NCBI GenBank assembly: GCA_963668695.2
Contig: CAXXLQ010000004.1
Span: 1,504,001 to 1,568,000, forward strand
Source: Vicinamibacteria bacterium
GTDB lineage: Bacteria > Acidobacteriota > Vicinamibacteria > Marinacidobacterales > Marinacidobacteraceae
Direction of reading: 5' to 3'
DNA: 64,000 bases
A program made the translations under genes and the position numbers. Of this stretch, positions 44,990 through 61,496 are shown piece after piece. Each line of letters opens with the position of its first letter. The stretch's first letter is position 1. The notes beneath the pieces are model-generated. The model saw only the letters and a list, made by a program, of their open reading frames with translations. It ran no database searches and was not told the origin of the DNA.

Positions 44990-45349
44990 GCATCTCGGCA
45001 TTTGAGCGGCGATGCATCCCGGCTGACCGCTTCGCTCTGCGTTGCGATTCGGTCGGAATACGCCCGGTATGCCTCCCGAATCGCGCCTTGTCAGCCGGGC
45101 GCCTCGCCCCCACCGGGAGAACTGGCCGCTCTCGGCGCTCGACCTGCCTAGCAGCCTGTGGTGAAACCCAGGCGGCGTTCGAGCGGCGATGCATCCCGCC
45201 TGAACCGCGGCGCTTTGCGGCGCTTTGCGTTGCGTTTCGGTCGAAATACACCCGGTATTCCTCCCTCACGCGCCTTGTCAGCCGGGCGCCTCGCCCCCAC
45301 CGGGAGAACTGGCTGCTCTCGGCGCTCACCCGGGTTCCACCACAGGCTG
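44990..45349 (-). mobile_element. Degenerate MITE (44990-45147) plus intact MITE (45152-45349)
   Basis: The intact copy has CAGCCTGTGGTGAAACCC / GGGTTCCACCACAGGCTG and CTAG on both sides. Confidence 0.88.
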
Positions 45350-45420
45350 CTAGTCCACGGGCCGCTGGCGACGACTGAGATCGCCGCACTCCGCTCCCCG
45401 CGGGCGGCGGAGCGTTACCG

Positions 45421-46901: not shown

Positions 46902-47225
46902 GTGTCCAACAAGTTTCGGACAACCCTGCTGGCCGTCTTCGGCGTTCTCGCCGCTTCCCCGGTCTTCGCCCAGGGAACCTGGGATCCGGTGGTGACCCAG
47001 TGGGCGATGATTTCGGCGGCCGGGGCGATCGCCATCGCCGCCGCCTTTGGCGCCACGGCCCAGGGACGCGCGGTTGCCGGCGCCTGTGAGGCCCTCGCCC
47101 GAAACCCCGGCGCCGCCGCGCAGATCCGCTTCTCGCTGCTCCTCGGTCTGGTGCTGATCGAGTCGCTCGTCATCTACGCCTTCGTCACCGCGCTCATCAT
47201 CTTCTTCGTCCGCTGGAACACCTGA
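46902..47225 (+). CDS. atpE: ATP synthase Fo subunit c
   Basis: ARNPG loop, LIESL carboxylate; N-terminal leader. Confidence 0.92.
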   Translation: MSNKFRTTLLAVFGVLAASPVFAQGTWDPVVTQWAMISAAGAIAIAAAFGATAQGRAVAGACEALARNPGAAAQIRFSLLLGLVLIESLVIYAFVTALIIFFVRWNT

Positions 47226-47341
47226 GTCCGGCTGGCGCGGACCGGGCTCTTGCGCCCGGTCCGCGCCGATCGAACTCATTGGGAACGCCGGCCAGTCCTC
47301 CCGGTGGGGACTTCAGACCGGCATAGCCGTTCGCGTCCGGC

Positions 47342-47377
47342 AGCCATGGACCCGGGCGGTAAGCCTGGTCCATGGTT
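47342..47377 (+). terminator. Stem-loop after atpE
   Basis: AGCCATGGACCCGGGC..GCCTGGTCCATGGTT. Confidence 0.45.
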
Positions 47378-47451
47378 ACCGGCGCGCACGGCGCACCCGC
47401 CCAACGCCCCGACGGCGCGCCCGAACCAGCACCTCTGTCACGGACTGCTAG

Positions 47452-47720
47452 CAGCCGGTGGTCGAACCCGCGTGAGCGCCGAGGCTGGCCAGTTCTCCCG
47501 GTGGGGGCGAGGCCCAGTTCTCCCGGTGGGGGTCCGGCTGACAAGGCGCGTGAGGGAGGAATACCGGGTGTATTGCGACCGAAACGCAACGATGAGCGGC
47601 GCGCAGCGACGCGGTTCAGCCGGGATGGATCGCCGGCCGAACGCCGCGTGGGTTTCATCACCGGTTGTTCAGCCGGGATGGATCGCCGGGCGAACGCCGC
47701 CTGGGTTTCACTACAGGCTG
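47452..47720 (+). mobile_element. MITE copy with duplicated right end
   Basis: CTAG on both sides (47448-47451 and 47721-47724). Confidence 0.88.
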
Positions 47721-47733
47721 CTAGGGTGTTTCC

Positions 47734-48804
47734 ATGGTTCGCCCGTTCCGGTGGGACTCCGAGCGCCGGGTTCTCTGTCTGCTGGACCAGCGCCGGCTCC
47801 CCTCGAAAGAGGTCTGGATCGAGTGCGCCGAACCCGGCCAGGTTGGGGAGGCCATCCGCGAAATGGTCATTCGCGGTGCTCCGGCGATCGGGGTTGCTGC
47901 CGCCTACGCGGTGGTCCTCGGGTTTGCCCGGAACCTGGCCAGCGGAACCGCCGCCGCCCGCTTCGAGGACCTGGCGGCGGCGCTCCTGAACACCCGTCCC
48001 ACCGCGGTCAACCTGGAGAGCGCCCTCGACCGGATGCGGGTCCGACTGGGATCGCTGCTCCCCGGTCCCCGCGCTGATCTCGTCGCCGGTCTCGAGGACG
48101 AGGCGAACCGGATCGCCGCGGAGGATCTGGAAGCGAACCGCCGCCTCGGCGCGCTCGGCGCCGGCCTGTTGCCCCCCGGCGGCGGGCCGGCCCGCGTCCT
48201 GACTCACTGCAATGCGGGCAGCCTTGCCACTTCCGGTTACGGCACCGCTCTCGGGATCGTCCGGGCGGCGGTGGAATCCGGCCGCCGGGTCGAGGTCTTC
48301 GCACCCGAGACCCGGCCGTACCTTCAGGGCGCTCGCCTCACCGCCTGGGAACTCATGGCCGAGAAGATTCCGGTGACCTTGATCACCGATGGGATGGTCG
48401 GCGCCCTGCTCGCCAGGGGAGGGGTCGATGCGGTCGTCGTGGGCGCCGACCGGATCGCCGCGAACGGCGACATCGCCAACAAGATCGGCACCTATCAGGC
48501 CGCCGTGCTCGCGAAGGAACACGGCGTCCCGTTCCTGGTGGCGGCGCCCTTTTCGAGCGTGGATCTGAAAACGCCCACCGGGCGGGACATCCCCATCGAA
48601 GAGCGCCCCCCGGAGGAAGTCGCCGAGATCGCCGGACGGCGGGTGGCGCCCGAGGGCGTCCGGGTATGGAACCCGGCCTTTGACGTAACCCCGGCGAGGT
48701 ACATCACCGCCATCGTCACGGAGCGAGGGATCGCCCACCCGCCCCTGGCCGCCTCCCTTGCCCGTCTCGCGGCCTCGCACGGAAAAGCTCCCGCAGCTAG
48801 GTGA
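47734..48804 (+). CDS. mtnA: Methylthioribose-1-phosphate isomerase
   Basis: IRGAPAIG, RPTAVNL, THCNAG, ETRPYLQG, GADRI, NKIGTY, NPAFD. Confidence 0.95.
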   Translation: MVRPFRWDSERRVLCLLDQRRLPSKEVWIECAEPGQVGEAIREMVIRGAPAIGVAAAYAVVLGFARNLASGTAAARFEDLAAALLNTRPTAVNLESALDRMRVRLGSLLPGPRADLVAGLEDEANRIAAEDLEANRRLGALGAGLLPPGGGPARVLTHCNAGSLATSGYGTALGIVRAAVESGRRVEVFAPETRPYLQGARLTAWELMAEKIPVTLITDGMVGALLARGGVDAVVVGADRIAANGDIANKIGTYQAAVLAKEHGVPFLVAAPFSSVDLKTPTGRDIPIEERPPEEVAEIAGRRVAPEGVRVWNPAFDVTPARYITAIVTERGIAHPPLAASLARLAASHGKAPAAR

Positions 48805-48852
48805 GGGCGATTTGCTAACATCGTGCCATCACGACGCCATGGAGGTGCAATC

Positions 48853-49089
48853 ATGGGTAGCCTCACCATCCGAAATCTGGATGACCACGTCATTCAGGCG
48901 CTTAAGGCGGAGGCCAAGGCGAACCAGCGTTCGATGGAGGCTGAAGCGCGCCACGCTCTACGGGAGCGATTCAACCGGCGTCTTCGCATGGTGCGGCTGC
49001 GGGAGCGTTCCGATGCGCTCTCCAGGCTCACCACGGACGTTCCTCAGACGGACAGTGTCCTGCTGCTGCGCGAAGACCGGGACCGGTGA
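48853..49089 (+). CDS. FitA-like RHH antitoxin
   Basis: MGSLTIRNLDD..RSMEAEAR; C-terminal DSVLLLREDRDR; GGAGG RBS. Confidence 0.85.
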   Translation: MGSLTIRNLDDHVIQALKAEAKANQRSMEAEARHALRERFNRRLRMVRLRERSDALSRLTTDVPQTDSVLLLREDRDR

Positions 49090-49898
49090 GGCTTACGGTT
49101 GACGCCAGTGTGGTCGTCAAGTGGTACGTGCCCGAGGATCTGGCGGACAACGCGCGCTTGTTGCGCGCCCACCGTCTCGAACTCCATGCGCCGGACTTCC
49201 TTCTTGCCGAGTTCGCAAATGTCATCTGGAAGAAGTCTCGCCGAAAGGAAATCTCGGATGTGGCTGGTCACCTGGATGAGATTTCGCGTCTTCCGGAGAA
49301 CATCAGCCTGCGTTCCATGTCCAGCTTGATCGGCCGGGCCAGTCGGATTTCGCTGGCGCTCGATCAAACGGTTTACGACTGCCTCTATCTGGCCTGCGCG
49401 GAGGAAACGTCATCGCCGCTGGTCACGGCAGACCAGACGCTTGCCAACAAGGTCAGTGACAGCGCTCTGGACATCACCGTCCGCCACGTGGGCTCGGCCG
49501 ACTTCGCGGACGACATTGGTGCGGCCGGCACCGCACCAGTCATCACGCGGGAGACGGTTGCGAACCTGGTCGAGGCCTACCGCCTCCTTGAAGCGACCCG
49601 TGAAGCGTTACGCCGCGAGACAAAAGATGGGTTCGAGGTATTGGACATCGGTGCGCTTGAAATGCATCGTGACTCCGCGGCGCGTCGCCGCCTCGTCACG
49701 CTCTTGCGGGGGCTCTCGGAAGAGGAACGTATTGATCTCCTCGCGCTCGGGTGGCTGGGCCGGCCGGATGGTTGGGATTGGAAGTCCTGCTTTGAATACG
49801 CATGCGGCGAGATCGACACCGCCCACGAGAATTACCTGATCCGCAACGGCCAGTTCTGGCAGCGGGGATACGAGCGATTGTTTGACGTCGCTCTTTGA
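49086..49898 (+). CDS. vapC: VapC PIN toxin with C-terminal DUF3775-like extension
   Basis: VDASVVVKW, EFANV, YDCLYLA, TAD; tail LSEEERIDLLALGWLGR. Confidence 0.82.
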   Translation: MRLTVDASVVVKWYVPEDLADNARLLRAHRLELHAPDFLLAEFANVIWKKSRRKEISDVAGHLDEISRLPENISLRSMSSLIGRASRISLALDQTVYDCLYLACAEETSSPLVTADQTLANKVSDSALDITVRHVGSADFADDIGAAGTAPVITRETVANLVEAYRLLEATREALRRETKDGFEVLDIGALEMHRDSAARRRLVTLLRGLSEEERIDLLALGWLGRPDGWDWKSCFEYACGEIDTAHENYLIRNGQFWQRGYERLFDVAL

Positions 49899-49903
49899 AG
49901 ACC

Positions 49904-50968
49904 ATGCTCGTCCTGGGGATCGAGACCTCCTGCGACGAAACCTCGGCGGCGGTGGTCGAGGATGGTCGTCGCATCCTCTCGAACGTCGTTTCGTCGCAGG
50001 TCGCCGAGCACGCGGCCTTCGGCGGGGTGGTGCCCGAGATCGCCTCCCGGCAGCACCTCGTGAACCTTTCGCCGGTGGTGCGGCAAGCGCTGAGCGAGGC
50101 GCGCGTGGGACTCGCGGACATCGAGGCCGTTGCGGTAACCAGTGGCCCGGGACTCATCGGAGCGCTGCTTACGGGGGTCTCTTTCGCCAAGGCCTTCGCG
50201 TTCGCCCGCGGCATTCCGCTGGTGGGGGTGGATCACATCGAGGGGCATATCCGGGCCTGCTATCTGGAAGGTGGCGACGTCCCCCACCCGGCGCTGGCGC
50301 TGGTGGTCTCCGGGGGGCACACGAGTCTTTTCCTGCTCGCAGGCGAGAGTTCCTACCGGCTGCTCGGCAAGACCCGCGACGATGCGGCCGGCGAGGCGTA
50401 CGACAAGCTCGCCAAACGGCTCGGCCTCGGCTATCCGGGCGGTCCGGTGCTGGACCGGCTGGCGCAGCGCGGCGACGCGAACCGCCACCTGCTGTCGCTC
50501 CCGCACTTTTCGGACGGCGCCAAACTCGACTTCAGCTTTTCGGGCCTCAAGACCCAGGTCCTGCGGCTCATCGAGAAGGAAGGAATCGCGCCTTTGGCCG
50601 GCGGCGAGGATCCCGCCAGCCGACCCGATCTCTGCGACCTGGCGGCCAGCTTTCAGTCGGCGGTGGTGCGGGCGCTCCGCCGCTCGGTGGACCGCGCGCT
50701 TGACATGTTTGAAGTGAGGGCGGTCCTGCTGTCCGGCGGCGTCGCCGCCAACTCGGCGCTCCGTGCCCGCTTCCGCGCTCTCGGTGAGGAGCGCGGCCTG
50801 CCCGTGTTCTACCCGAGCATCGCCCTCTCCACCGACAACGCGGCCATGATCGCCGCCGCCGGTCACCTGGCACTCCTGCGGGGCGAAACGGCAGGTTCCG
50901 ACCTTACCGCCGACACCGAGTTGCGGCTTGGGGAGTCGGGACCGCGAAGGTCCCGGCGCCACCGGTGA
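49904..50968 (+). CDS. tsaD: tRNA threonylcarbamoyladenosine biosynthesis protein TsaD
   Basis: GIETSCDE, GGVVPE, HIEGH, SGGH, DDAAGEAYDK, TDNAAMI. Confidence 0.95.
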   Translation: MLVLGIETSCDETSAAVVEDGRRILSNVVSSQVAEHAAFGGVVPEIASRQHLVNLSPVVRQALSEARVGLADIEAVAVTSGPGLIGALLTGVSFAKAFAFARGIPLVGVDHIEGHIRACYLEGGDVPHPALALVVSGGHTSLFLLAGESSYRLLGKTRDDAAGEAYDKLAKRLGLGYPGGPVLDRLAQRGDANRHLLSLPHFSDGAKLDFSFSGLKTQVLRLIEKEGIAPLAGGEDPASRPDLCDLAASFQSAVVRALRRSVDRALDMFEVRAVLLSGGVAANSALRARFRALGEERGLPVFYPSIALSTDNAAMIAAAGHLALLRGETAGSDLTADTELRLGESGPRRSRRHR

Positions 50969-52545
50969 ACCCGAACGTGCGGGAGGCGCCGCCCGATCCC
51001 GATCGCGTAACCGCCGTCTACCGACTTCAGGCGAGCTCCGGGGACCCGGAGGAGTTCGCCCGCGCCATCGCCATCGAGCAGACGGTAGAGATTCCGCAGT
51101 CGCTCATTCCACCCGGACGGATTCAGGACGAAATCGTCGGGAAGGTCGAGTCGGTGGCGCCCGATCCGGACGCTTCGGGCGCCTCCCGAATCACCATCAG
51201 CTACGCGGCGGATCTCGCGACGGATCTCTTCGGCCTGCTGAGCGTGGCTATCGGCAACGCCTCGATGTACGGCGGAGTGCGACTCGTCGATCTGCAGCCA
51301 CCCCGGGCGCTCCTCGAGAGCCTCCCGGGACCGAACCACGGCGTCGAAGGGGTGCGGCGGCTTTGCGGTGTGCTCGGGCGTCCGCTGCTGGCCACGGCGG
51401 TAAAGCCCCGGGGCTCGAGCGTCCCCGAGTTGGCCGCGATCGCGGGCGCCTTCGCGCGGGCTGGTGGAGATCTGGTCAAGGACGATCAGAACCTGACCGA
51501 CGACTTCCCTGCTTTTCGATCCCGGGTGCTCGCCTGCGGCGAGGCGGTGGACCGGGCCAACCAGACCACGGGTCGGCGGTGCCTCTACCTCCCCCACGCC
51601 GGCGCCCGGGCGGAGGAACTCGAACGTTTCGTCGAGTTCGTCGCCGAGGCCGGTCTCCCCGGTGTCTTGATCTGCCCGATGATCGCCGGCCTCGACACGG
51701 TGCGGGCGTTGGCGGAGCGCTATCCGCTGATCTTCATGGCGCACCCCTCGCTGACCGGGGCCTACACGCACGCTCCCACCCAGGGAGTGGCCCACGGGGT
51801 CCTGCTCGGGACCCTCTTCCGGCTGGCCGGAGCGGACATTTCGGTGTTTCCGGATGCGGGCGGCCGCTTTGCGTATTCGGCAGCCGAGTGTGCGGAGATC
51901 ACCGGGCGGCTCCGGGAGCCGCTCGGCGCGCTCCGTCCGGCGTGGCCGGCCCCCGCCGGCGGGATGGGCCTCGCCGACGTAGGGCGCATCTGCGAGACCT
52001 ACGGCCCCGATACGGTCCTGCTGATCGGCGGGGCGCTCCTCGGCCACACCGGCGGCGTGGAGGCGGGAACCCGGGAGATCCTCGCGAGGATCCGCGAATC
52101 CCACCCCGAGGTGGCCATGGAACCGGCGGATCTGCCGCGCCCCGCGCTCCCCGAGCCGCGCCGGTTGGCCTTCAGCCGCGACTGGAACTGGGAGGGGCGC
52201 GACAGCTCGCCCTACAAGGACGCTCGAGATCTCGCGTTCCGGGGCGTGCGGCGGGTGGAACTCGTCGGGAAATTCGGGGAGCGAACGCGCTCGGACCTGC
52301 GCTACTTCGAGGTCGAACCGGGTGGCCACACGAGCCTCGAGCGGCACGTCCACACCCACGTGGTCATCGGGGCCCGCGGGGAGGGCGTCCTCCTGCTCGG
52401 GGATCGGCGGCTGCCGCTGCGGCACCTCGACGTCGCCTGCGTCGGCCCGCTGGAGGCCCACCAGTTGCGGAACGAGACCGCCGAGCCGTTCGGTTTCTTC
52501 TGCGTGGTGGACCACGACCGCGACCGCCCGATGAGGGCGGAGTAG
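50965..52545 (+). CDS. RuBisCO-like protein (form IV) fused to a cupin
   Basis: AIEQT, AVKPRG, GGDLVKDD, AHP, PAGG, IGG; C-terminal LRYFEVEPGGHTSLERHVHTH..HQLRN..GFFCVVD. Confidence 0.9.
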   Translation: MNPNVREAPPDPDRVTAVYRLQASSGDPEEFARAIAIEQTVEIPQSLIPPGRIQDEIVGKVESVAPDPDASGASRITISYAADLATDLFGLLSVAIGNASMYGGVRLVDLQPPRALLESLPGPNHGVEGVRRLCGVLGRPLLATAVKPRGSSVPELAAIAGAFARAGGDLVKDDQNLTDDFPAFRSRVLACGEAVDRANQTTGRRCLYLPHAGARAEELERFVEFVAEAGLPGVLICPMIAGLDTVRALAERYPLIFMAHPSLTGAYTHAPTQGVAHGVLLGTLFRLAGADISVFPDAGGRFAYSAAECAEITGRLREPLGALRPAWPAPAGGMGLADVGRICETYGPDTVLLIGGALLGHTGGVEAGTREILARIRESHPEVAMEPADLPRPALPEPRRLAFSRDWNWEGRDSSPYKDARDLAFRGVRRVELVGKFGERTRSDLRYFEVEPGGHTSLERHVHTHVVIGARGEGVLLLGDRRLPLRHLDVACVGPLEAHQLRNETAEPFGFFCVVDHDRDRPMRAE

Positions 52546-52759
52546 GCGAGGGACGGTCCTTGGAATTGATGGACCCTCCCCAAACGGTTACTTTGTAGAG
52601 AGGCGGCGGGCCTAGGGAGACCCACCCATCTCCGGCATGGCCTGTCCTTCGAGGACCTTGTACCACGTGTACGTCGTCATGTCGCCCGTCGCTGAACATT
52701 TTGCCCGGACGGCGCCGCAGGGAAGGAACCGCCCCAGTTTCTCGGTGGGGGTCCTCCAG

Positions 52760-53226
52760 CAGCCTGTGGACAAAGTGACGTGAGCACCGAGGCCGGTGAG
52801 GCGCCCGGCTGACAAGGCGCGCGAGGGAGGAGCCCCCACCGGGAGAACTGGCCCGAGTGTATTTCGACCGATGTGCAACGCAGAGCGTCGCGAAGCGGCG
52901 CGGTTCAGCCGGGATGCATCGCCGGTCGCTTCCGGAGCGGGGCGCGAGCACCGCGGAGACCCCGGAGCGGAAGGGACGGGAGGCGGGGCTACCCGACCCC
53001 CATCCCTTCTGGCTCGGGCTTCCGGAGCGGGGCGCGAGCACCGCGGAGACCCCGGAGCGGAAGGGACGGGAGGCGGGGCTACCCGACCCCCATCCCTTCT
53101 GGCTCGGGCTTCCGGAGCGGGGCGCGAGCACCGCGGAGACCCCGGAGCGGAAGGGACGGGAGGCGGGGCTACCCGACCCCCATCCCTTCTGGCTCGGGAA
53201 TGCCGCCTGACTTTGTCCACAGGCTG
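52760..53226 (+). mobile_element. MITE carrying three exact 90-bp tandem units
   Basis: Ends CAGCCTGTGGACAAAGT / ACTTTGTCCACAGGCTG then CTAG; units at about 52928, 53018 and 53108. Confidence 0.88.
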
Positions 53227-53565
53227 CTAGGTCGGGATCGTCCCCCGAGAGGCGGGCGAAATGCGTATGGCCGACCCGCGTGAAGCGCGGCCGGGTCAGG
53301 GGCCCCCACCGGGAGAAACTGGCGCCGCCTCTGGCCGGCAGCGCGCCGGAGCGCGAAACGAGCGCCGATGCCGCTGCGCCATGCCGACGTCAGGGCCGCA
53401 CTCCCGGGGAGTCCTCAGCTCCGGGGCGCCGCCACGCTGGCGTCGCAGCCGGGACGCGCCCTCGTTCCTCTGCTCGGCGCCCCGGCGAGCCGGTGGCGTC
53501 TCGAACCCGGCGTGGGATGTTCCGGCGATCAGCACCTCAGTCGCAGTGGTGCGGGGTCACACCGC

Positions 53566-54048
53566 TCAGGATCGATCCAACGCACTCATGAACCGTCCAA
53601 ACCGCTCAAGGTCGCGCGTCACCAGCGGATGAGCCTGGCGCAGCTTGCCCACGAGAAAGTCCAGGCGATCCCAGTCATATTCCAACTCGAAGTAGTTACG
53701 CTTGAAGTGGCGGAACTGGAGCAGTTGCAAGAGCGGGGGGAAGGCAGCCTCTGATACCGCCGCCACCCGCACGCCCTTGATCTCCAGAGTCATCTTCTGC
53801 AGCAAGTCCGTGTGCCAGCGGTCGGAGCCGAGACGGTTTTCGAAGTGCTGCGAGATTCGCAGGAGGATCGTCTCCAGGCAGGTGTAGTAGTTCTCCAGCA
53901 GGCCAGCGATGATGAGCGCCGACACCGGCGTCTTGCCGAGCCTGGTGATCTCGTCGGTGAGCGCCCTCTCGAGGGTTCCGTGAACCGCCTCCAGCCGCCG
54001 CCGATGCAATTCGACGAGGGCTGTGAGTTCACGGATCGCTGCGTTCAT
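53566..54048 (-). CDS. HEPN-domain RNase toxin (HepT-like)
   Basis: NYYTCLE, WHTDLL, FRHFKRNY; downstream of the MNT gene. Confidence 0.8.
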   Translation of the reverse strand: MNAAIRELTALVELHRRRLEAVHGTLERALTDEITRLGKTPVSALIIAGLLENYYTCLETILLRISQHFENRLGSDRWHTDLLQKMTLEIKGVRVAAVSEAAFPPLLQLLQFRHFKRNYFELEYDWDRLDFLVGKLRQAHPLVTRDLERFGRFMSALDRS

Positions 54049-54418
54049 GGACCACTGCACCCCGGGCGCGAATGCGCTCGGCGATCTCCGCTGGGACCTT
54101 CTCCAGCTCGATCACGTCGACCGGTAGGGTCGTTCCCTCCATCGCGATGCCGAGTGTCCGAAAGAACTCGGCCGGCCCGTGCAGCCCCTCGATTGCGAAG
54201 TCGATGTCCGAGATTTCACTGAATCGCGACCGATCGAGCAGCGACCCCCACTGGTAGATGCGGCGCGGGTTTACTTGTTCCGCGATTGCCGCGACGATCG
54301 CGCTCGCGTCCCGGGTGGCCTGCTCGAAGCGTGCATCAATCCGCGCACGCCGCCGCCTTTCCTTTTCGGTCTGGAATGCCCGGGCCCGATCGAGATCGAT
54401 GCCGAACTCGTTTGCCAC
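54029..54418 (-). CDS. Minimal nucleotidyltransferase (MNT) antitoxin
   Basis: WGS..SDID, PVDVI; a TATACT box precedes the GTG start. Confidence 0.82.
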   Translation of the reverse strand: MANEFGIDLDRARAFQTEKERRRRARIDARFEQATRDASAIVAAIAEQVNPRRIYQWGSLLDRSRFSEISDIDFAIEGLHGPAEFFRTLGIAMEGTTLPVDVIELEKVPAEIAERIRARGAVVHERSDP

Positions 54419-54513
54419 CGCGTGCCAGTATAAGCGGCGGCGGCGCACCCTCCGGACGACCGGTTCCCGGTGGTCCGAAGCGCCGGGGGCGTTCTGTCCG
54501 TCTGCCGAGTGCG

Positions 54514-59546: not shown

Positions 59547-61496
59547 ATGGCGAACTCATCCGGCAGTTCCCGCGAGTTCACGCTCCGGGCTGTTCTCCTC
59601 GGCCTGTTCATGGCCGTGGTGCTAGGGGCGGCGAACGCCTATCTCGGCATCCGCGCCGGCCAGACGGTCGCCGCGACCTTCCCGGCCGCGGTGGTCTCCA
59701 TGGTCGTTATCCGGGGGCTCTTCAAGGGGGGCACCCTCCTCGAAGAGAACATCGCCCGGACCACCGCCTCGGTGGGAGAGGCGCTGGCCGCCGGGGCCAT
59801 CTTCACGCTTCCGGCGTTCCTGATGGCGGGGGCGTGGGAGGAGTTCCACTACCTCGAGAGCACCCTGCTGATGCTGGTCGGCGGGCTGCTCGGCATCCTC
59901 TTCGTCGTCATCCTCCGGCGGAGCATGGTCAACGACCCCGAGCTGCCGTTCCCCGAGTCGGTCGCCGCCGCCGAGATCCACCGCGCCGGCAAGGGAGCGA
60001 GCGGCGGGCGGCTGCTCTTCCAGATGATGGGGGTCGGCGCCCTGATCGAGGTGTTCAAGAACTCGAAGGGGATCCAGCTCTTCACCGACCGGATCGCCGG
60101 GGCCTTCGGCTACGGCACCTTCCAGGGGTCGGTCTCGGTCGGCGGCCAGTCCTTCGGTGCCGCGGCGCAGCCCGGAGTGCTCCCCTTTTCCACTCCGTCG
60201 GCTTCGCCCGCCTACCTGGGCGTGGGCTACATCATCGGCTTCCGGCTGGCGGCGCTCACCTTCTCGGGAGGGGTCTTCGCCTGGTGGTTCATGATCCCGG
60301 CGGTCCTCTTCTTCAATCCCGAGTTCGCAGATGCGAACCGGTTGGCGGCGGCGGGAGCCGATTGGAGCGCGGTCAGCAGCGTCATCTGGGCGGAGCTCGT
60401 GCGGCCGATCGCGGTGGGGGCGATGATCGCCGGTGCGGTCTGGACCCTGCTCCGGATGCGGAAGTCGCTCGGCGAGGGGCTCCGCCGCTCCTTCGTCGAA
60501 ATCCGGACCGGCCACCCGGCCGGCTCGGGCGATGAGAAGGACCGCGACATTCCCTTCAGTTGGACCACCGCGGGCGTGGTCGCCCTCGTCATCCCGACCT
60601 TCTTCCTCTACAACTACTACACGGGCCAGGCGCTCGGAGCGCTCGGCTCCGCGATCGTGATGATCATCGCCGGGTTCTTCTTCTCGGCGGTCGCCGGCTA
60701 TCTGGTCGGCGTGATCGGGAGTTCCTCGAACCCGGTCTCCGGCCTGACCATCTCGACGCTGCTGCTGGCCGCCTTGTTGATGACCTTCCTCGGCGTCACC
60801 GGCATGCAGGGGGTGACGGCGGTGCTCGGGGTGGCCGCGGTGGTCTGCTGCGCCTGCGCGGTCGCCGGGGACATGCTCCAGGATCTCAAAGTGGGTCAGA
60901 TCCTCGGGGGCACCCCGTTCCGCATGGAATGGGCCGAGATCATCGGGGTGATCTTCGCCTCGTTCTTCCTCGTCCTCCCCATGATGCTCCTCCACCAGGG
61001 AGACATCGCGTCGGGCGGAATCGGGATTGGAGGCGAAGAGCTGCCCGCGCCCCAGGCGGGCCTGATGGCGCTCCTGTCCCAGGGCATCGTGGGCGGCGAC
61101 ATGCGCTGGCCGCTCGTGGTCTTCGGGATCGCGCTCTGTTTCTTCCTGATCCTGATTCAGGCGCCCTCCCCGATGCTCATCGCGGTGGGGATGTACCTGC
61201 CTCTCCAAACCACCTTCGCCATCTTCGTGGGTGGCTTCTTCCGCTGGGTGACCGATCAGCGGATGGCGTCGCTGCCGGCGGAACGGCGGTCCCTTGGGGA
61301 GAGTGCCGGGACGCTGATCGCGTCCGGACTCATCGCCGGGGAGGCGCTGATGGGGGTGGCGCTAGCCGGATTCGCGGTATGGGACTTCCAGCTTCCGGTG
61401 CTGGTGCCCGCGCCGTCCGGGGTGCCGGGATTCCTGGTGTTCGTGGTTCTCGGCTGGTTCCTGATCCGGATTCCGCTGCGCCACGCCCGGGGGTAG
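59547..61496 (+). CDS. Oligopeptide transporter, OPT family
   Basis: EFTLRA, ENIART, LPFPE, GSSSNPVSG, LQDLKVG, PAPQA, SGLIAGE. Confidence 0.93.
   Translation: MANSSGSSREFTLRAVLLGLFMAVVLGAANAYLGIRAGQTVAATFPAAVVSMVVIRGLFKGGTLLEENIARTTASVGEALAAGAIFTLPAFLMAGAWEEFHYLESTLLMLVGGLLGILFVVILRRSMVNDPELPFPESVAAAEIHRAGKGASGGRLLFQMMGVGALIEVFKNSKGIQLFTDRIAGAFGYGTFQGSVSVGGQSFGAAAQPGVLPFSTPSASPAYLGVGYIIGFRLAALTFSGGVFAWWFMIPAVLFFNPEFADANRLAAAGADWSAVSSVIWAELVRPIAVGAMIAGAVWTLLRMRKSLGEGLRRSFVEIRTGHPAGSGDEKDRDIPFSWTTAGVVALVIPTFFLYNYYTGQALGALGSAIVMIIAGFFFSAVAGYLVGVIGSSSNPVSGLTISTLLLAALLMTFLGVTGMQGVTAVLGVAAVVCCACAVAGDMLQDLKVGQILGGTPFRMEWAEIIGVIFASFFLVLPMMLLHQGDIASGGIGIGGEELPAPQAGLMALLSQGIVGGDMRWPLVVFGIALCFFLILIQAPSPMLIAVGMYLPLQTTFAIFVGGFFRWVTDQRMASLPAERRSLGESAGTLIASGLIAGEALMGVALAGFAVWDFQLPVLVPAPSGVPGFLVFVVLGWFLIRIPLRHARG

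Follow-up and report, generated by a model that had tools for sequence, protein, structure and literature searches.

A gene joining a RuBisCO-like protein to a cupin, a candidate bifunctional MTA-isoprenoid shunt enzyme in Vicinamibacteria

A single open reading frame in the window, as we call the whole stretch of 64,000 nucleotides that was analyzed from a marine acidobacterium, joins a RuBisCO-like protein (RLP) to a cupin. Its product is probably a bifunctional MTA-isoprenoid shunt enzyme, a reading that we hold at a probability of about 0.7 and in which both activities are deduced from the sequence. One gene would then unite both signature enzymes of a pathway that converts methylthioadenosine waste into an isoprenoid precursor and methanethiol. 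The fused form is new, the pair of enzymes itself is known, and we infer its activity. The gene is organized as follows:

50965..52545, + strand, fusion gene, one open frame of 526 amino acids with a GTG start and a 4-nt overlap with the tsaD stop
50965..52110, + strand, RLP domain, residues 1-382, best PDB match 3QFW
52111..52161, + strand, variable linker, residues 383-399, from the alignment of fusions and the sequence
52162..52545, + strand, cupin domain, residues 400-526, PDB matches 3IBM, 3JZV and 3KGZ

The fused gene and its junction

The RLP half contains the Pfam domain RuBisCO_large (PF00016) at residues 128-291, with 75.4 bits against a cut-off of 30.1. Cupin_2 (PF07883), at residues 447-515, reached 26.2 bits, slightly below its cut-off of 27.2, but the cupin assignment was secured because phmmer matched three cupin structures. 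An earlier note on this DNA had described one 526-residue frame that combines an RLP and a cupin with KP, KDD, LERHxHxH and GFxC motifs, and all four were seen in the translation: VKPRG (K147-P148) and VKDDQN (K172-D173-D174) in the RLP half, and LERHVHTHVV (E459, H461, H463 and H465) and GFFC (C513) in the cupin half. The pLDDT was mostly 80-97 over the RLP domain and 58-64 over residues about 390-440. The same note had proposed that an internal ATG could yield a free cupin. The codon is indeed present inside the linker (52117-52119, M385), with GAGG 5 nt upstream. Since M385 is retained in just 2 of 23 aligned fusions, a free cupin starting at this residue is unlikely as a conserved feature.

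An assembly error or a frameshift could have merged two separate genes, and no point in support of this explanation was found. In sequencing runs from two studies, one of these runs possibly being the source of the window itself, a single 1851-nt contig covered 50939-52600 without any difference or indel. The junction region, 52090-52150, where a check of the reads had been advised, was crossed in both studies. Contigs of a related strain traversed 52100-52150 with substitutions and nothing else. A stop between the domains was sought in the frame and across the spanning contigs, and there was none. A full-length, stop-free match to the fusion was present in 24 of 27 family genomes, and both domains occurred together in 28 representative clusters (50% identity). 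The best 120 database homologues listed were all 501-584 amino acids long and carried PF00016; in this precomputed list 119 also carried PF07883, and the remaining one showed PF00016 alone. The fusion is no assembly artefact; the contigs and homologues, together with 43 fused loci from several phyla, have already refuted that explanation, leaving it a negligible probability. A contig from an RNA library was identical to 52218-52527, a weak hint that the gene is expressed.

Relatives and conserved residues of the two halves

The RLP half has a RuBisCO large-subunit fold without the carboxylase signature and, judged from its matches, is nearer to the characterized RLP1, of the DeepYkr type, than to other RLP clades. 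Parts of a study of Rhodopseudomonas palustris (PMC5893883) describe two RLPs in all in this organism and identify RLP1 as the 1,3-isomerase of 5-methylthioribulose-1-phosphate (MTRu-1P) in vivo and in vitro. The phmmer scores of the RLP half were 214.7 bits for 3QFW, an R. palustris RLP distinct from rlp2 (2QYG), followed by 4NAS (164.4), 2ZVI (140.8), 1YKW (91.7) and 2QYG (88.1). Foldseek superimposed it on 3QFW with a TM-score of 0.91 and placed the MtnW structures second (0.80-0.84). The identity to 3QFW was only 35-36%, a value that counts against the shunt reading. The unfused relative L063 matched 3QFW with 409 bits; the match to 4NAS, an MtnW-type structure, was stronger for the RLP half of the fusion (164 bits) than for L063 (126 bits), a further point against the shunt reading.

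The gene could instead unite two steps of classical methionine salvage, an MtnW-type enolase and a cupin dioxygenase resembling ARD. The acireductone dioxygenase MtnD likewise belongs to the cupins, and the top NCBIfam match by name was the MtnW model PRK09549 (NF007095). However, its 197 bits are well under the cut-off of 409, as are the 148 bits of TIGR03332 (cut-off 513.6). At position 98 the phmmer alignment pairs IGN of the query with FGK of 4NAS, so that an Asn, conserved in 42 of 42 fused sequences, stands in place of a Lys. The MtnW Lys at the RuBisCO N123 position is what we take to be the catalytic base. In addition, the Pfam search gave no ARD family match to the fusion protein, the nearest cupin relatives are shunt cupins, and MtnB, required ahead of the enolase, was not found in the genome. 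We regard this explanation as highly improbable. The MtnW/YkrW DK-MTP-1P enolases of Bacillus subtilis (2ZVI), Geobacillus kaustophilus (2OEK) and Alicyclobacillus (4NAS) have the RLP fold and methionine salvage in common with the fusion, but the fusion scores below their equivalog cut-offs, and MtnB and MtnX lie outside its context.

The RLP half also scored far from the models of OiaX (87 bits, cut-off 700) and of form III (147, cut-off 497). The acid-sugar RLPs, which include OiaX (3-oxo-isoapionate-4-phosphate decarboxylase), belong to the RuBisCO superfamily too, at about 28% identity, but they form a long-branch outgroup and carry R, K and E at the positions of P261, R301 and Q175 of the fusion. 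Grouping with enolase or sugar-acid RLPs was the result that the earlier note had named as fatal to its proposal; with 3QFW as the best match and the MtnW and OiaX cut-offs failed, no such grouping was found.

The cupin half gave a parallel picture, and its proposed relationship to the methylsulfurylase held. Its top three PDB matches were 3IBM (110.6 bits), 3JZV (Rru_A2000, 73.9) and 3KGZ (71.9), which come from H. halophila, Rhodospirillum rubrum and R. palustris, respectively (PMC3293032). The match to 3JZV had an E value of 1.3e-19 and aligned query residues 11-132 with chain residues 14-133, while the next non-shunt cupin reached 28 bits. Parts of PMC4958253 and PMC4334135 describe Rru_A2000 as the methylsulfurylase of 1-methylthioxylulose-5-phosphate (MTXu-5P). 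This cupin family is small: among 1.84 billion representatives, 516 matched at E<=1e-3.

Residues at catalytic positions are conserved in both halves. N98 (codon 51256-51258), K147 (51403-51405), K172-D173-D174 (51478-51486), H260, R286, D291 and R301 were invariant in all 42 fused and all 24 unfused RLP sequences aligned. The same was true of E459, H461, H463, H465, H499, Q500 and C513 in 42 fused and 19 unfused cupins; the E459-H465 region lies at 52345-52359 and the C513 codon at 52501-52503. Five of these residues, E459, H461, H463, H465 and H499, constitute a putative metal site (61 of 61 sequences), and in the alignment C513 of GFFC is matched by the GFLC cysteine of Rru_A2000. The role of the active-site cysteine in the methylsulfurylase cupin was reportedly addressed by Warlick et al. 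in 2012.

Other positions distinguish the fused proteins. Position 175 of the RLP is Q in 27, H in 13 and N in 2 of the 42 fused sequences and H in all 24 unfused ones; at position 176, 41 of 42 fused sequences have N, and 22 of 24 unfused ones have G. In the cupin, R412 (41 of 42) and N503 (42 of 42) are replaced in 17 of the 19 unfused sequences by V and A, respectively. These clade-specific residues are consistent with a drift in substrate, by which the enzyme would act on another 5-thio- or 5-deoxy-pentulose phosphate, or on another thioalkyl group, with products other than DXP and methanethiol. The fused forms constitute their own clade, with RLPs 35-50% identical to the unfused RLPs, and MtnP is absent from the family. 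The characterized enzymes fall into a different clade from the fused forms, so that specificity could differ, which counts against the shunt reading. Nonetheless, both clades keep the core residues at catalytic positions without variation, among them the Cys, the set of His residues, Arg and Tyr, and mtnA, plus a class II aldolase in some relatives, is found beside the fusion. Such a drift seems rather unlikely.

Distribution of the fusion and gene neighborhood

The search for other fusions recommended earlier was productive: the fusion is widespread, in several bacterial phyla, and of 68 loci classified 43 were fused, 23 had a cupin after the RLP and 2 had the RLP alone. In 22 of the 23 the cupin has a gene of its own, no more than about 75 nt away, and the other is a fused-type gene split by a stop. 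The nearest unfused relatives are neighboring RLP and cupin gene pairs, which is Rosetta-stone evidence for the shunt reading; the link, covalent here, is kept as gene proximity in 22 related loci. The cupin tree divided fused from separate sequences with a support of 100. In the RLP tree, which had acid-sugar RLPs as its only outgroup and was built without the YkrW (MtnW), Photo and NonPhoto references, a clade with a support of 99 contained 41 of 42 fused sequences and both RLPs found alone. It stood next to two clades of unfused RLPs that are linked to cupins, with no resolved branching order among the three, and remote from the OiaX-type outgroups. The fusion has a single-clade origin.

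The following genes precede the fusion:

47734..48804, + strand, mtnA, S-methyl-5-thioribose-1-phosphate isomerase (TIGR00512, 428.8 bits, cut-off 279)
48823..49089, + strand, FitA-like RHH antitoxin (Pfam)
49086..49898, + strand, PIN-DUF3775 protein of a toxin-antitoxin cassette (Pfam)
49895..50968, + strand, tsaD, tRNA t6A synthesis (TIGR03723, 398.5 bits, cut-off 296.1)

From mtnA to the fusion the genes abut or share 4-nt overlaps, forming one gene string. The claim that mtnA is co-oriented with the fusion stood, but the two are not adjacent, being separated by the toxin-antitoxin pair and tsaD. The cassette (48823..49898) is an insertion and lies outside the pathway; its GC content is 0.62, versus about 0.70 in the surroundings, and it is missing in five other genomes, as judged from gene spacing. 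The tsaD gene is a syntenic passenger. Linkage of mtnA to the fusion was seen only in the genome's own genus and one neighboring genus, and four genus members have a class II aldolase directly downstream of the fusion. No shared pathway genes surrounded the fusion in the neighborhoods inspected in other phyla. In the class, 59 of 61 genomes have mtnA regardless of the fusion, so its co-occurrence with the fusion adds nothing. Both points count against the shunt reading.

Proposed shunt and the supply of DXP

In the proposed shunt, MtnA, from the same gene string, would produce MTRu-1P, which the RLP domain would convert by a 1,3-shift into MTXu-5P. The tethered cupin would then strip the methylthio group reductively, a step carried out by C513 together with a metal that the His/Glu set binds. 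The DXP released would enter the Dxr/IspH pathway of the host, and methanethiol could be returned to methionine by O-acetylhomoserine sulfhydrylase (OAHS). Which substrates and which thiol reductant are used is predicted by this scheme, as is any channelling from one active site to the other. The genome, which is 91.7% complete, contains OAHS (586.2 bits, cut-off 495.1), Dxr (436.6) and IspH (217.9). MtnB and a class II aldolase were not found in it, so there is no other recognizable consumer of MTRu-1P.

The upstream step is less clear. MtnP was not found in the genome, where the best MTAP match, 86.5 bits versus a cut-off of 274.85, is a purine nucleoside phosphorylase, nor in any of 28 family genomes; at E<=1e-40 it was present in 31 of 33 other class genomes, and in 29 of these its score exceeded the cut-off. 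MtnN and MtnK had no match in the genome. This leaves the origin of MTR-1P unaccounted for; the step has just two candidates, a TRZ/ATZ deaminase below threshold and a purine nucleoside phosphorylase that scored 267 bits against a cut-off of 218. None of the 28 family genomes had a match to the glutathione synthetase GshB (TIGR01380) above the cut-off, so the reductant of R. rubrum may be lacking here. Both the missing MTR-1P source and the result for GshB count against the shunt reading.

The same chemistry could have a larger role if isoprenoids, thiamine and PLP drew their DXP mainly or wholly from the fusion, as opposed to its being a side route of sulfur salvage. The fusion is the only recognizable DXP-forming enzyme of the genome: Dxs was not found (TIGR00204, best 70.7 versus 466; PF13292, no match), HMG-CoA reductase is absent, and Dxr and IspH are present. 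Parts of PMC10663253 propose that the shunt may stand in for Dxs in 5 species without this enzyme. If this were so, the MEP pathway, thiamine and PLP would be fed by SAM-derived methylthio-sugars and not by pyruvate and glyceraldehyde-3-phosphate, and the fusion would serve to keep the flux tight. However, the lack of Dxs spans the class (1 of 61 genomes over the cut-off), and Dxr is found in 59 of 61, with or without the fusion. Neither the fusion nor any RLP was found in the 27 genomes of families f2 and f3, so another source of DXP must exist in the class. Moreover, Dxs is present in 5 of 5 fusion-bearing genomes of other phyla, and without MtnP in the family the route of MTA supply is unclear. 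Replacement of Dxs by the fusion was not shown, its loss being class-wide irrespective of the fusion. A role as chief DXP supplier is accordingly unlikely, and it is equally doubtful that this marine Vicinamibacteria family, with no Dxs, mevalonate pathway or MtnP, acquired the fusion horizontally as its main route to DXP.

The closest known systems are the pairs of R. rubrum (RLP Rru_A1998 and cupin Rru_A2000) and R. palustris (RPA2169 and RPA2170). They belong to the same families, have the same order, RLP then cupin, and supply the best solved relatives of both halves (3QFW for the RLP; 3JZV, 3KGZ and 3IBM for the cupin). The residues at catalytic positions, MtnA and OAHS are common to these pairs and the fusion system. 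The separate genes of R. rubrum and R. palustris differ from the single polypeptide, with its variable linker of about 20-40 residues, and from its clade, the RLP being about 36% identical to 3QFW. R. rubrum, according to parts of PMC4334135, has Dxs and MtnP, unlike the genome analyzed here, which has no recognizable MtnP, GshB or Dxs. A precedent for the fusion of consecutive methionine-salvage enzymes is described in parts of PMC6302742 for MtnBD and MtnAK of Tetrahymena thermophila, which differ from the present fusion in protein families, pathway branch and organisms.

The RLP-cupin gene and its locus

The fusion of a RuBisCO-like protein (RLP) and a cupin is encoded at the end of a run of five co-oriented genes (47734-52545), in which neighbours abut or share 4 nt.

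Genes of the block, with the models that identified them
47734-48804, + strand: mtnA (TIGR00512, 428.8 bits, cut-off 279)
48823-49089, + strand: FitA-like antitoxin (Pfam)
49086-49898, + strand: PIN protein with a C-terminal DUF3775 (Pfam)
49895-50968, + strand: tsaD (NCBIfam)
50965-52545, + strand: fusion ORF, 526 aa (RuBisCO_large at residues 128-291, C-terminal cupin at 447-515)

The earlier note had described mtnA as co-oriented with the fusion, which it is; the antitoxin, PIN-DUF3775 and tsaD genes lie in between, and hence the two are not adjacent. All four motifs that it had named in the fusion ORF were found. The toxin-antitoxin pair (48823-49898) has a G+C content of 0.62 in a window of 66.9%, and gene spacing indicates that it is present only in some members of the genus and missing from five. 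Its low G+C and these absences point to an insertion between mtnA and tsaD. A scan of 47200-52900 returned no promoter-like site and one terminator-like site, which falls within coding sequence; shuffled sequences gave more. The RNA run X17 contributed a single 310-nt contig, located on the cupin part only, and because of its small size no claim is made for transcription of the whole gene. Intergenic repeats of one family, each about 150 nt long and present in either orientation, lie on both sides of the mtnA-to-fusion block (44996-45354, 47280-47725 and 52758-53330), and a 90-bp sequence is repeated in tandem three times, in perfect copies, at 52928-53198. Just 3' of the fusion, at 53566-54448 (- strand), there is a HepT-like toxin and Pol-beta nucleotidyltransferase (MNT-like) pair.

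The RLP-cupin fusion is real. One 1851-nt contig in each of two sequencing runs from different studies, one of which may be the window's own source, spans 50939-52600 with 0 differences, and a related strain crosses the domain junction with substitutions only. The best 120 homologues listed are all 501-584 aa long and carry PF00016; PF07883 is also listed in 119 of them, the other one (P0013) being listed with PF00016 alone. A full-length, stop-free match was found in the window's own genome and in 24 of the 27 other genomes of its family. Species-representative genomes were then scanned, and the 68 loci kept were classed by an open-frame test. Of the 68 loci, 43 are fused. A separate cupin gene follows directly after the RLP gene in 22, the RLP occurs without a cupin in two (L052 and L053), and one (L057) has a fused-type gene interrupted by an internal stop; these last three fall inside the fused clade. 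The cupin belongs to a small family: among 1.84 billion representatives, searched exhaustively, 516 matched it at E<=1e-3, and 243 did so at E<=1e-10. Among the best 150 cupin matches, 28 are at least 495 aa long, and all 28 carry PF00016. In one representative protein, the 781-aa P0252, two stretches of cupin come after the RLP.

The earlier note had also raised the possibility that an internal ATG at 52117 (Met385) yields a free cupin. The codon exists, but only 2 of the 23 fusions aligned share it, and it lies in a linker that varies between fusions and has low pLDDT; separate translation of the cupin is therefore not conserved. Complex prediction with the RLP domain (1-382) and the cupin domain (400-526) gave 0.00 in two runs, a value that carries no information on an interface.

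Predicted activities of the two halves

In the MTA-isoprenoid shunt, MTR-1P formed from MTA is converted by MtnA to MTRu-1P, by an RLP to MTXu-5P, and by a cupin to DXP and methanethiol. The RLP half of the fusion is nearest to 3QFW (214.7 bits) rather than to MtnW-type structures (164.4, 140.8 and 130.4 bits), in agreement with the isomerase assignment proposed earlier. The predicted model is confident (pLDDT 84.1, pTM 0.76), and a Foldseek search with it matched 3QFW, an RLP of Rhodopseudomonas palustris, with a TM-score of 0.91. According to an excerpt of PMC5893883, R. palustris has two RLPs, of which RLP1 is an MTRu-1P 1,3-isomerase with demonstrated activity. Since the other one, rlp2, is 2QYG, 3QFW was taken as RLP1. 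The NCBIfam models for MtnW, form III and OiaX all scored well under their cut-offs with the RLP half. The fusion protein has IGN at the site of FGK in the MtnW structure 4NAS, whose lysine we take to be the enolase base. The following RLP positions are identical in 42/42 fused and 24/24 unfused rows of the alignment: E38, Q39, E42, N98, K147, K172, D173, D174, H260, P261, R286, D291, R301, F302, P330, G332/G333 and G355/G356. Acid-sugar RLPs deviate at positions 261, 301 and 175. At the last of these the unfused rows have H (24/24), while the fused rows have Q (27/42), H (13) or N (2); position 176 is N in 41/42 fused and G in 22/24 unfused rows.

The cupin half matches 3IBM (110.6 bits), 3JZV, labelled 'Rru_A2000' (73.9 bits), and 3KGZ (71.9 bits); the next cupin, which lies outside the shunt, scores 28 bits, and the relationship to the methylsulfurylase postulated in the earlier note is thus upheld. 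The source organisms of 3IBM and 3KGZ are Halorhodospira halophila and R. palustris, respectively (excerpt of PMC3293032), and Rru_A2000 is described as an MTXu-5P methylsulfurylase in parts of PMC4958253 and PMC4334135. In the cupin, 41 or 42 of the 42 fused and 19/19 unfused rows share the residue at R430, R446, Y447, E459, H461, H463, H465, H499, Q500, C513, R519 and D520. In the alignment with Rru_A2000, C513 falls on the cysteine of its GFLC motif. The equivalent cysteine is presumably the nucleophile, a role that work by Warlick in 2012 reportedly ascribed to a cysteine in the cupin. Fused and unfused cupins differ at R412 (41/42 fused, versus V in 17/19 unfused) and N503 (42/42 fused, versus A in 17/19 unfused).

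The fusion is probably, at roughly 70%, a bifunctional MTRu-1P isomerase/MTXu-5P methylsulfurylase. We infer both activities, and likewise the reductant, where MTR-1P comes from and whether the fusion enzyme channels. The protein is a widespread variant, in fused form, of an enzyme pair that is already known. To our knowledge, the shunt was shown experimentally in two alphaproteobacteria only. Those two have separate genes, whereas the window's lineage has one fused gene. As a Rosetta-stone case, this natural fusion independently supports a joint action of RLP isomerase and methylsulfurylase cupin as a pair, and the single polypeptide offers a handle for probing channelling of the labile MTXu-5P. 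With the fusion, Acidobacteriota, Planctomycetota, many Gammaproteobacteria and other phyla come within the likely range of the shunt and of methanethiol release from MTA. One carrier, Planctopirus hydrillae JC280 (L062), bears a strain name, on the basis of which we assume that it is in culture. No description of an RLP-cupin fusion was found in the literature searched; Erb et al. 2012, Warlick et al. 2012 or their supplements may mention fused homologues.

Origin of the fusion and its neighbourhoods

The trees included 42 fused rows (the window and 41 loci; the truncated L016 and L042 were omitted) and 19 separate rows, from which L021 and L022 (near-copies of L020), L040 (cut) and L057 (broken) were left out. 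The other rows were 2 RLP-alone, 5 database proteins, 2 plasmid RLPs and 2 acid-sugar outgroups; PDB matches and named loci served as proxies for R. rubrum and MtnW reference sequences. In the RLP tree (quick IQ-TREE), a clade with support 99 contains 41 fused rows and the 2 RLP-alone rows; a branch with support 72.9 sets all 44 on one side, L068 being a long unresolved row. The cupin tree splits fused from separate rows with support 100. Both trees are compatible with a fusion that arose once and was then transferred widely. Those of the Vicinamibacteria are nested within a mostly gammaproteobacterial clade (support 98), and within the class the fusion is limited to the window's family (24/27, versus 0/8 and 0/19 in two other families), a pattern that fits acquisition by transfer.

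Clustering of ORFs over 65 loci revealed no pathway gene common to fusion neighbourhoods across phyla, and gave, besides various housekeeping genes, only an OPT transporter, in 7 fused loci. In those 7 loci the OPT-family oligopeptide transporter gene immediately precedes the fusion (e.g. L013:6035-7987), and the window has one at 59547-61496, 7 kb downstream of the fusion. Five loci, all with RLP and cupin as separate genes, have a phosphoribulokinase gene (313 bits, cut-off 236) upstream of the pair, one example being L024:5575-6624 from an Ectothiorhodospiraceae MAG. In 4 of 15 genus members, a convergent class II aldolase gene (PF00596, 157.5 bits) is located directly downstream of the fusion (L093:1767-2978 in G014; also in G003, G007 and G015), which links the locus with the metabolism of MTRu-1P. 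The repeats and the HepT/MNT pair occupy this position in the window. A plasmid of Mariluticola halotolerans (L089, NZ_CP090961.1 14078-21118) carries, in order, mtnA, a DXP-synthase-N-terminal-like gene, a transketolase-C-terminal-like gene and an RLP gene. This RLP is 37% identical to that of the window and has no cupin, and the operon could represent an alternative RLP-based route from MTRu-1P.

Shunt genes and the supply of DXP

The window's own genome (4.10 Mb, 4 contigs, completeness 91.7%, contamination 9.3%) has MtnA, OAHS (586 bits, cut-off 495), Dxr and IspH. At this completeness, no MtnP, MtnN, MtnK, MtnB, class II aldolase, Dxs, HMG-CoA reductase or GshB was found in it. A weak MTAP match proved to be a purine nucleoside phosphorylase (L001:1465-2325) adjoining a NupC transporter. 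The genome also has a TRZ/ATZ hydrolase (L075:1384-2811), kin of MTA and 5'-deoxyadenosine deaminases, which scores under every cut-off. With these two enzymes, a route in which the hydrolase would convert MTA to methylthioinosine and the phosphorylase would then release MTR-1P is conceivable. The class was compared over 61 genomes, including the unpublished G036, a member of the family with 0/8 fusions, on which no conclusion rests.

Occurrence of pathway genes in the 61 class genomes
Dxs, over cut-off: 1/61 by TIGR00204; 1/61 by PF13292
Dxr: 59/61
HMG-CoA reductase: 0/61
MtnA: 59/61
MtnP (TIGR01694): 0/28 in the window's family (G000-G027); 31/33 in the others (G028-G060) at E<=1e-40, 29 of them over cut-off

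The family that gained the fusion is the family without MtnP, and MtnA is retained in it and in the other class genomes. Co-occurrence of mtnA with the fusion was discarded as evidence, since a gene that is nearly universal in the class carries no weight. The lack of Dxs extends across the class, irrespective of the fusion. The absence of dxs from six cultured acidobacteria had already been reported (excerpt of PMC5462960), and what feeds the MEP pathway in bacteria lacking Dxs is described as an open question in an excerpt of PMC10663253. A general rule in which the fusion replaces Dxs is not supported, because the class lacks Dxs with or without the fusion and because, in other phyla, Dxs is present in 5 of 5 genomes that carry the fusion; the class-wide pattern likewise speaks against the fusion as a general answer to how the MEP pathway is fed without Dxs. 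Within the window's family, where the fusion is the only recognisable DXP-forming enzyme, it is possible that it acts in place of Dxs, and in this Dxs-less host lineage the locus offers a concrete case for pursuing the question. About 2.2 kb from ispH, the same genome encodes a 748-aa fused E1 alpha/beta thiamine-diphosphate enzyme (L004:1420-3666) that scores under the PDH cut-offs and adjoins an acyl-CoA dehydrogenase; similar frames of 720-840 aa recur throughout the class.
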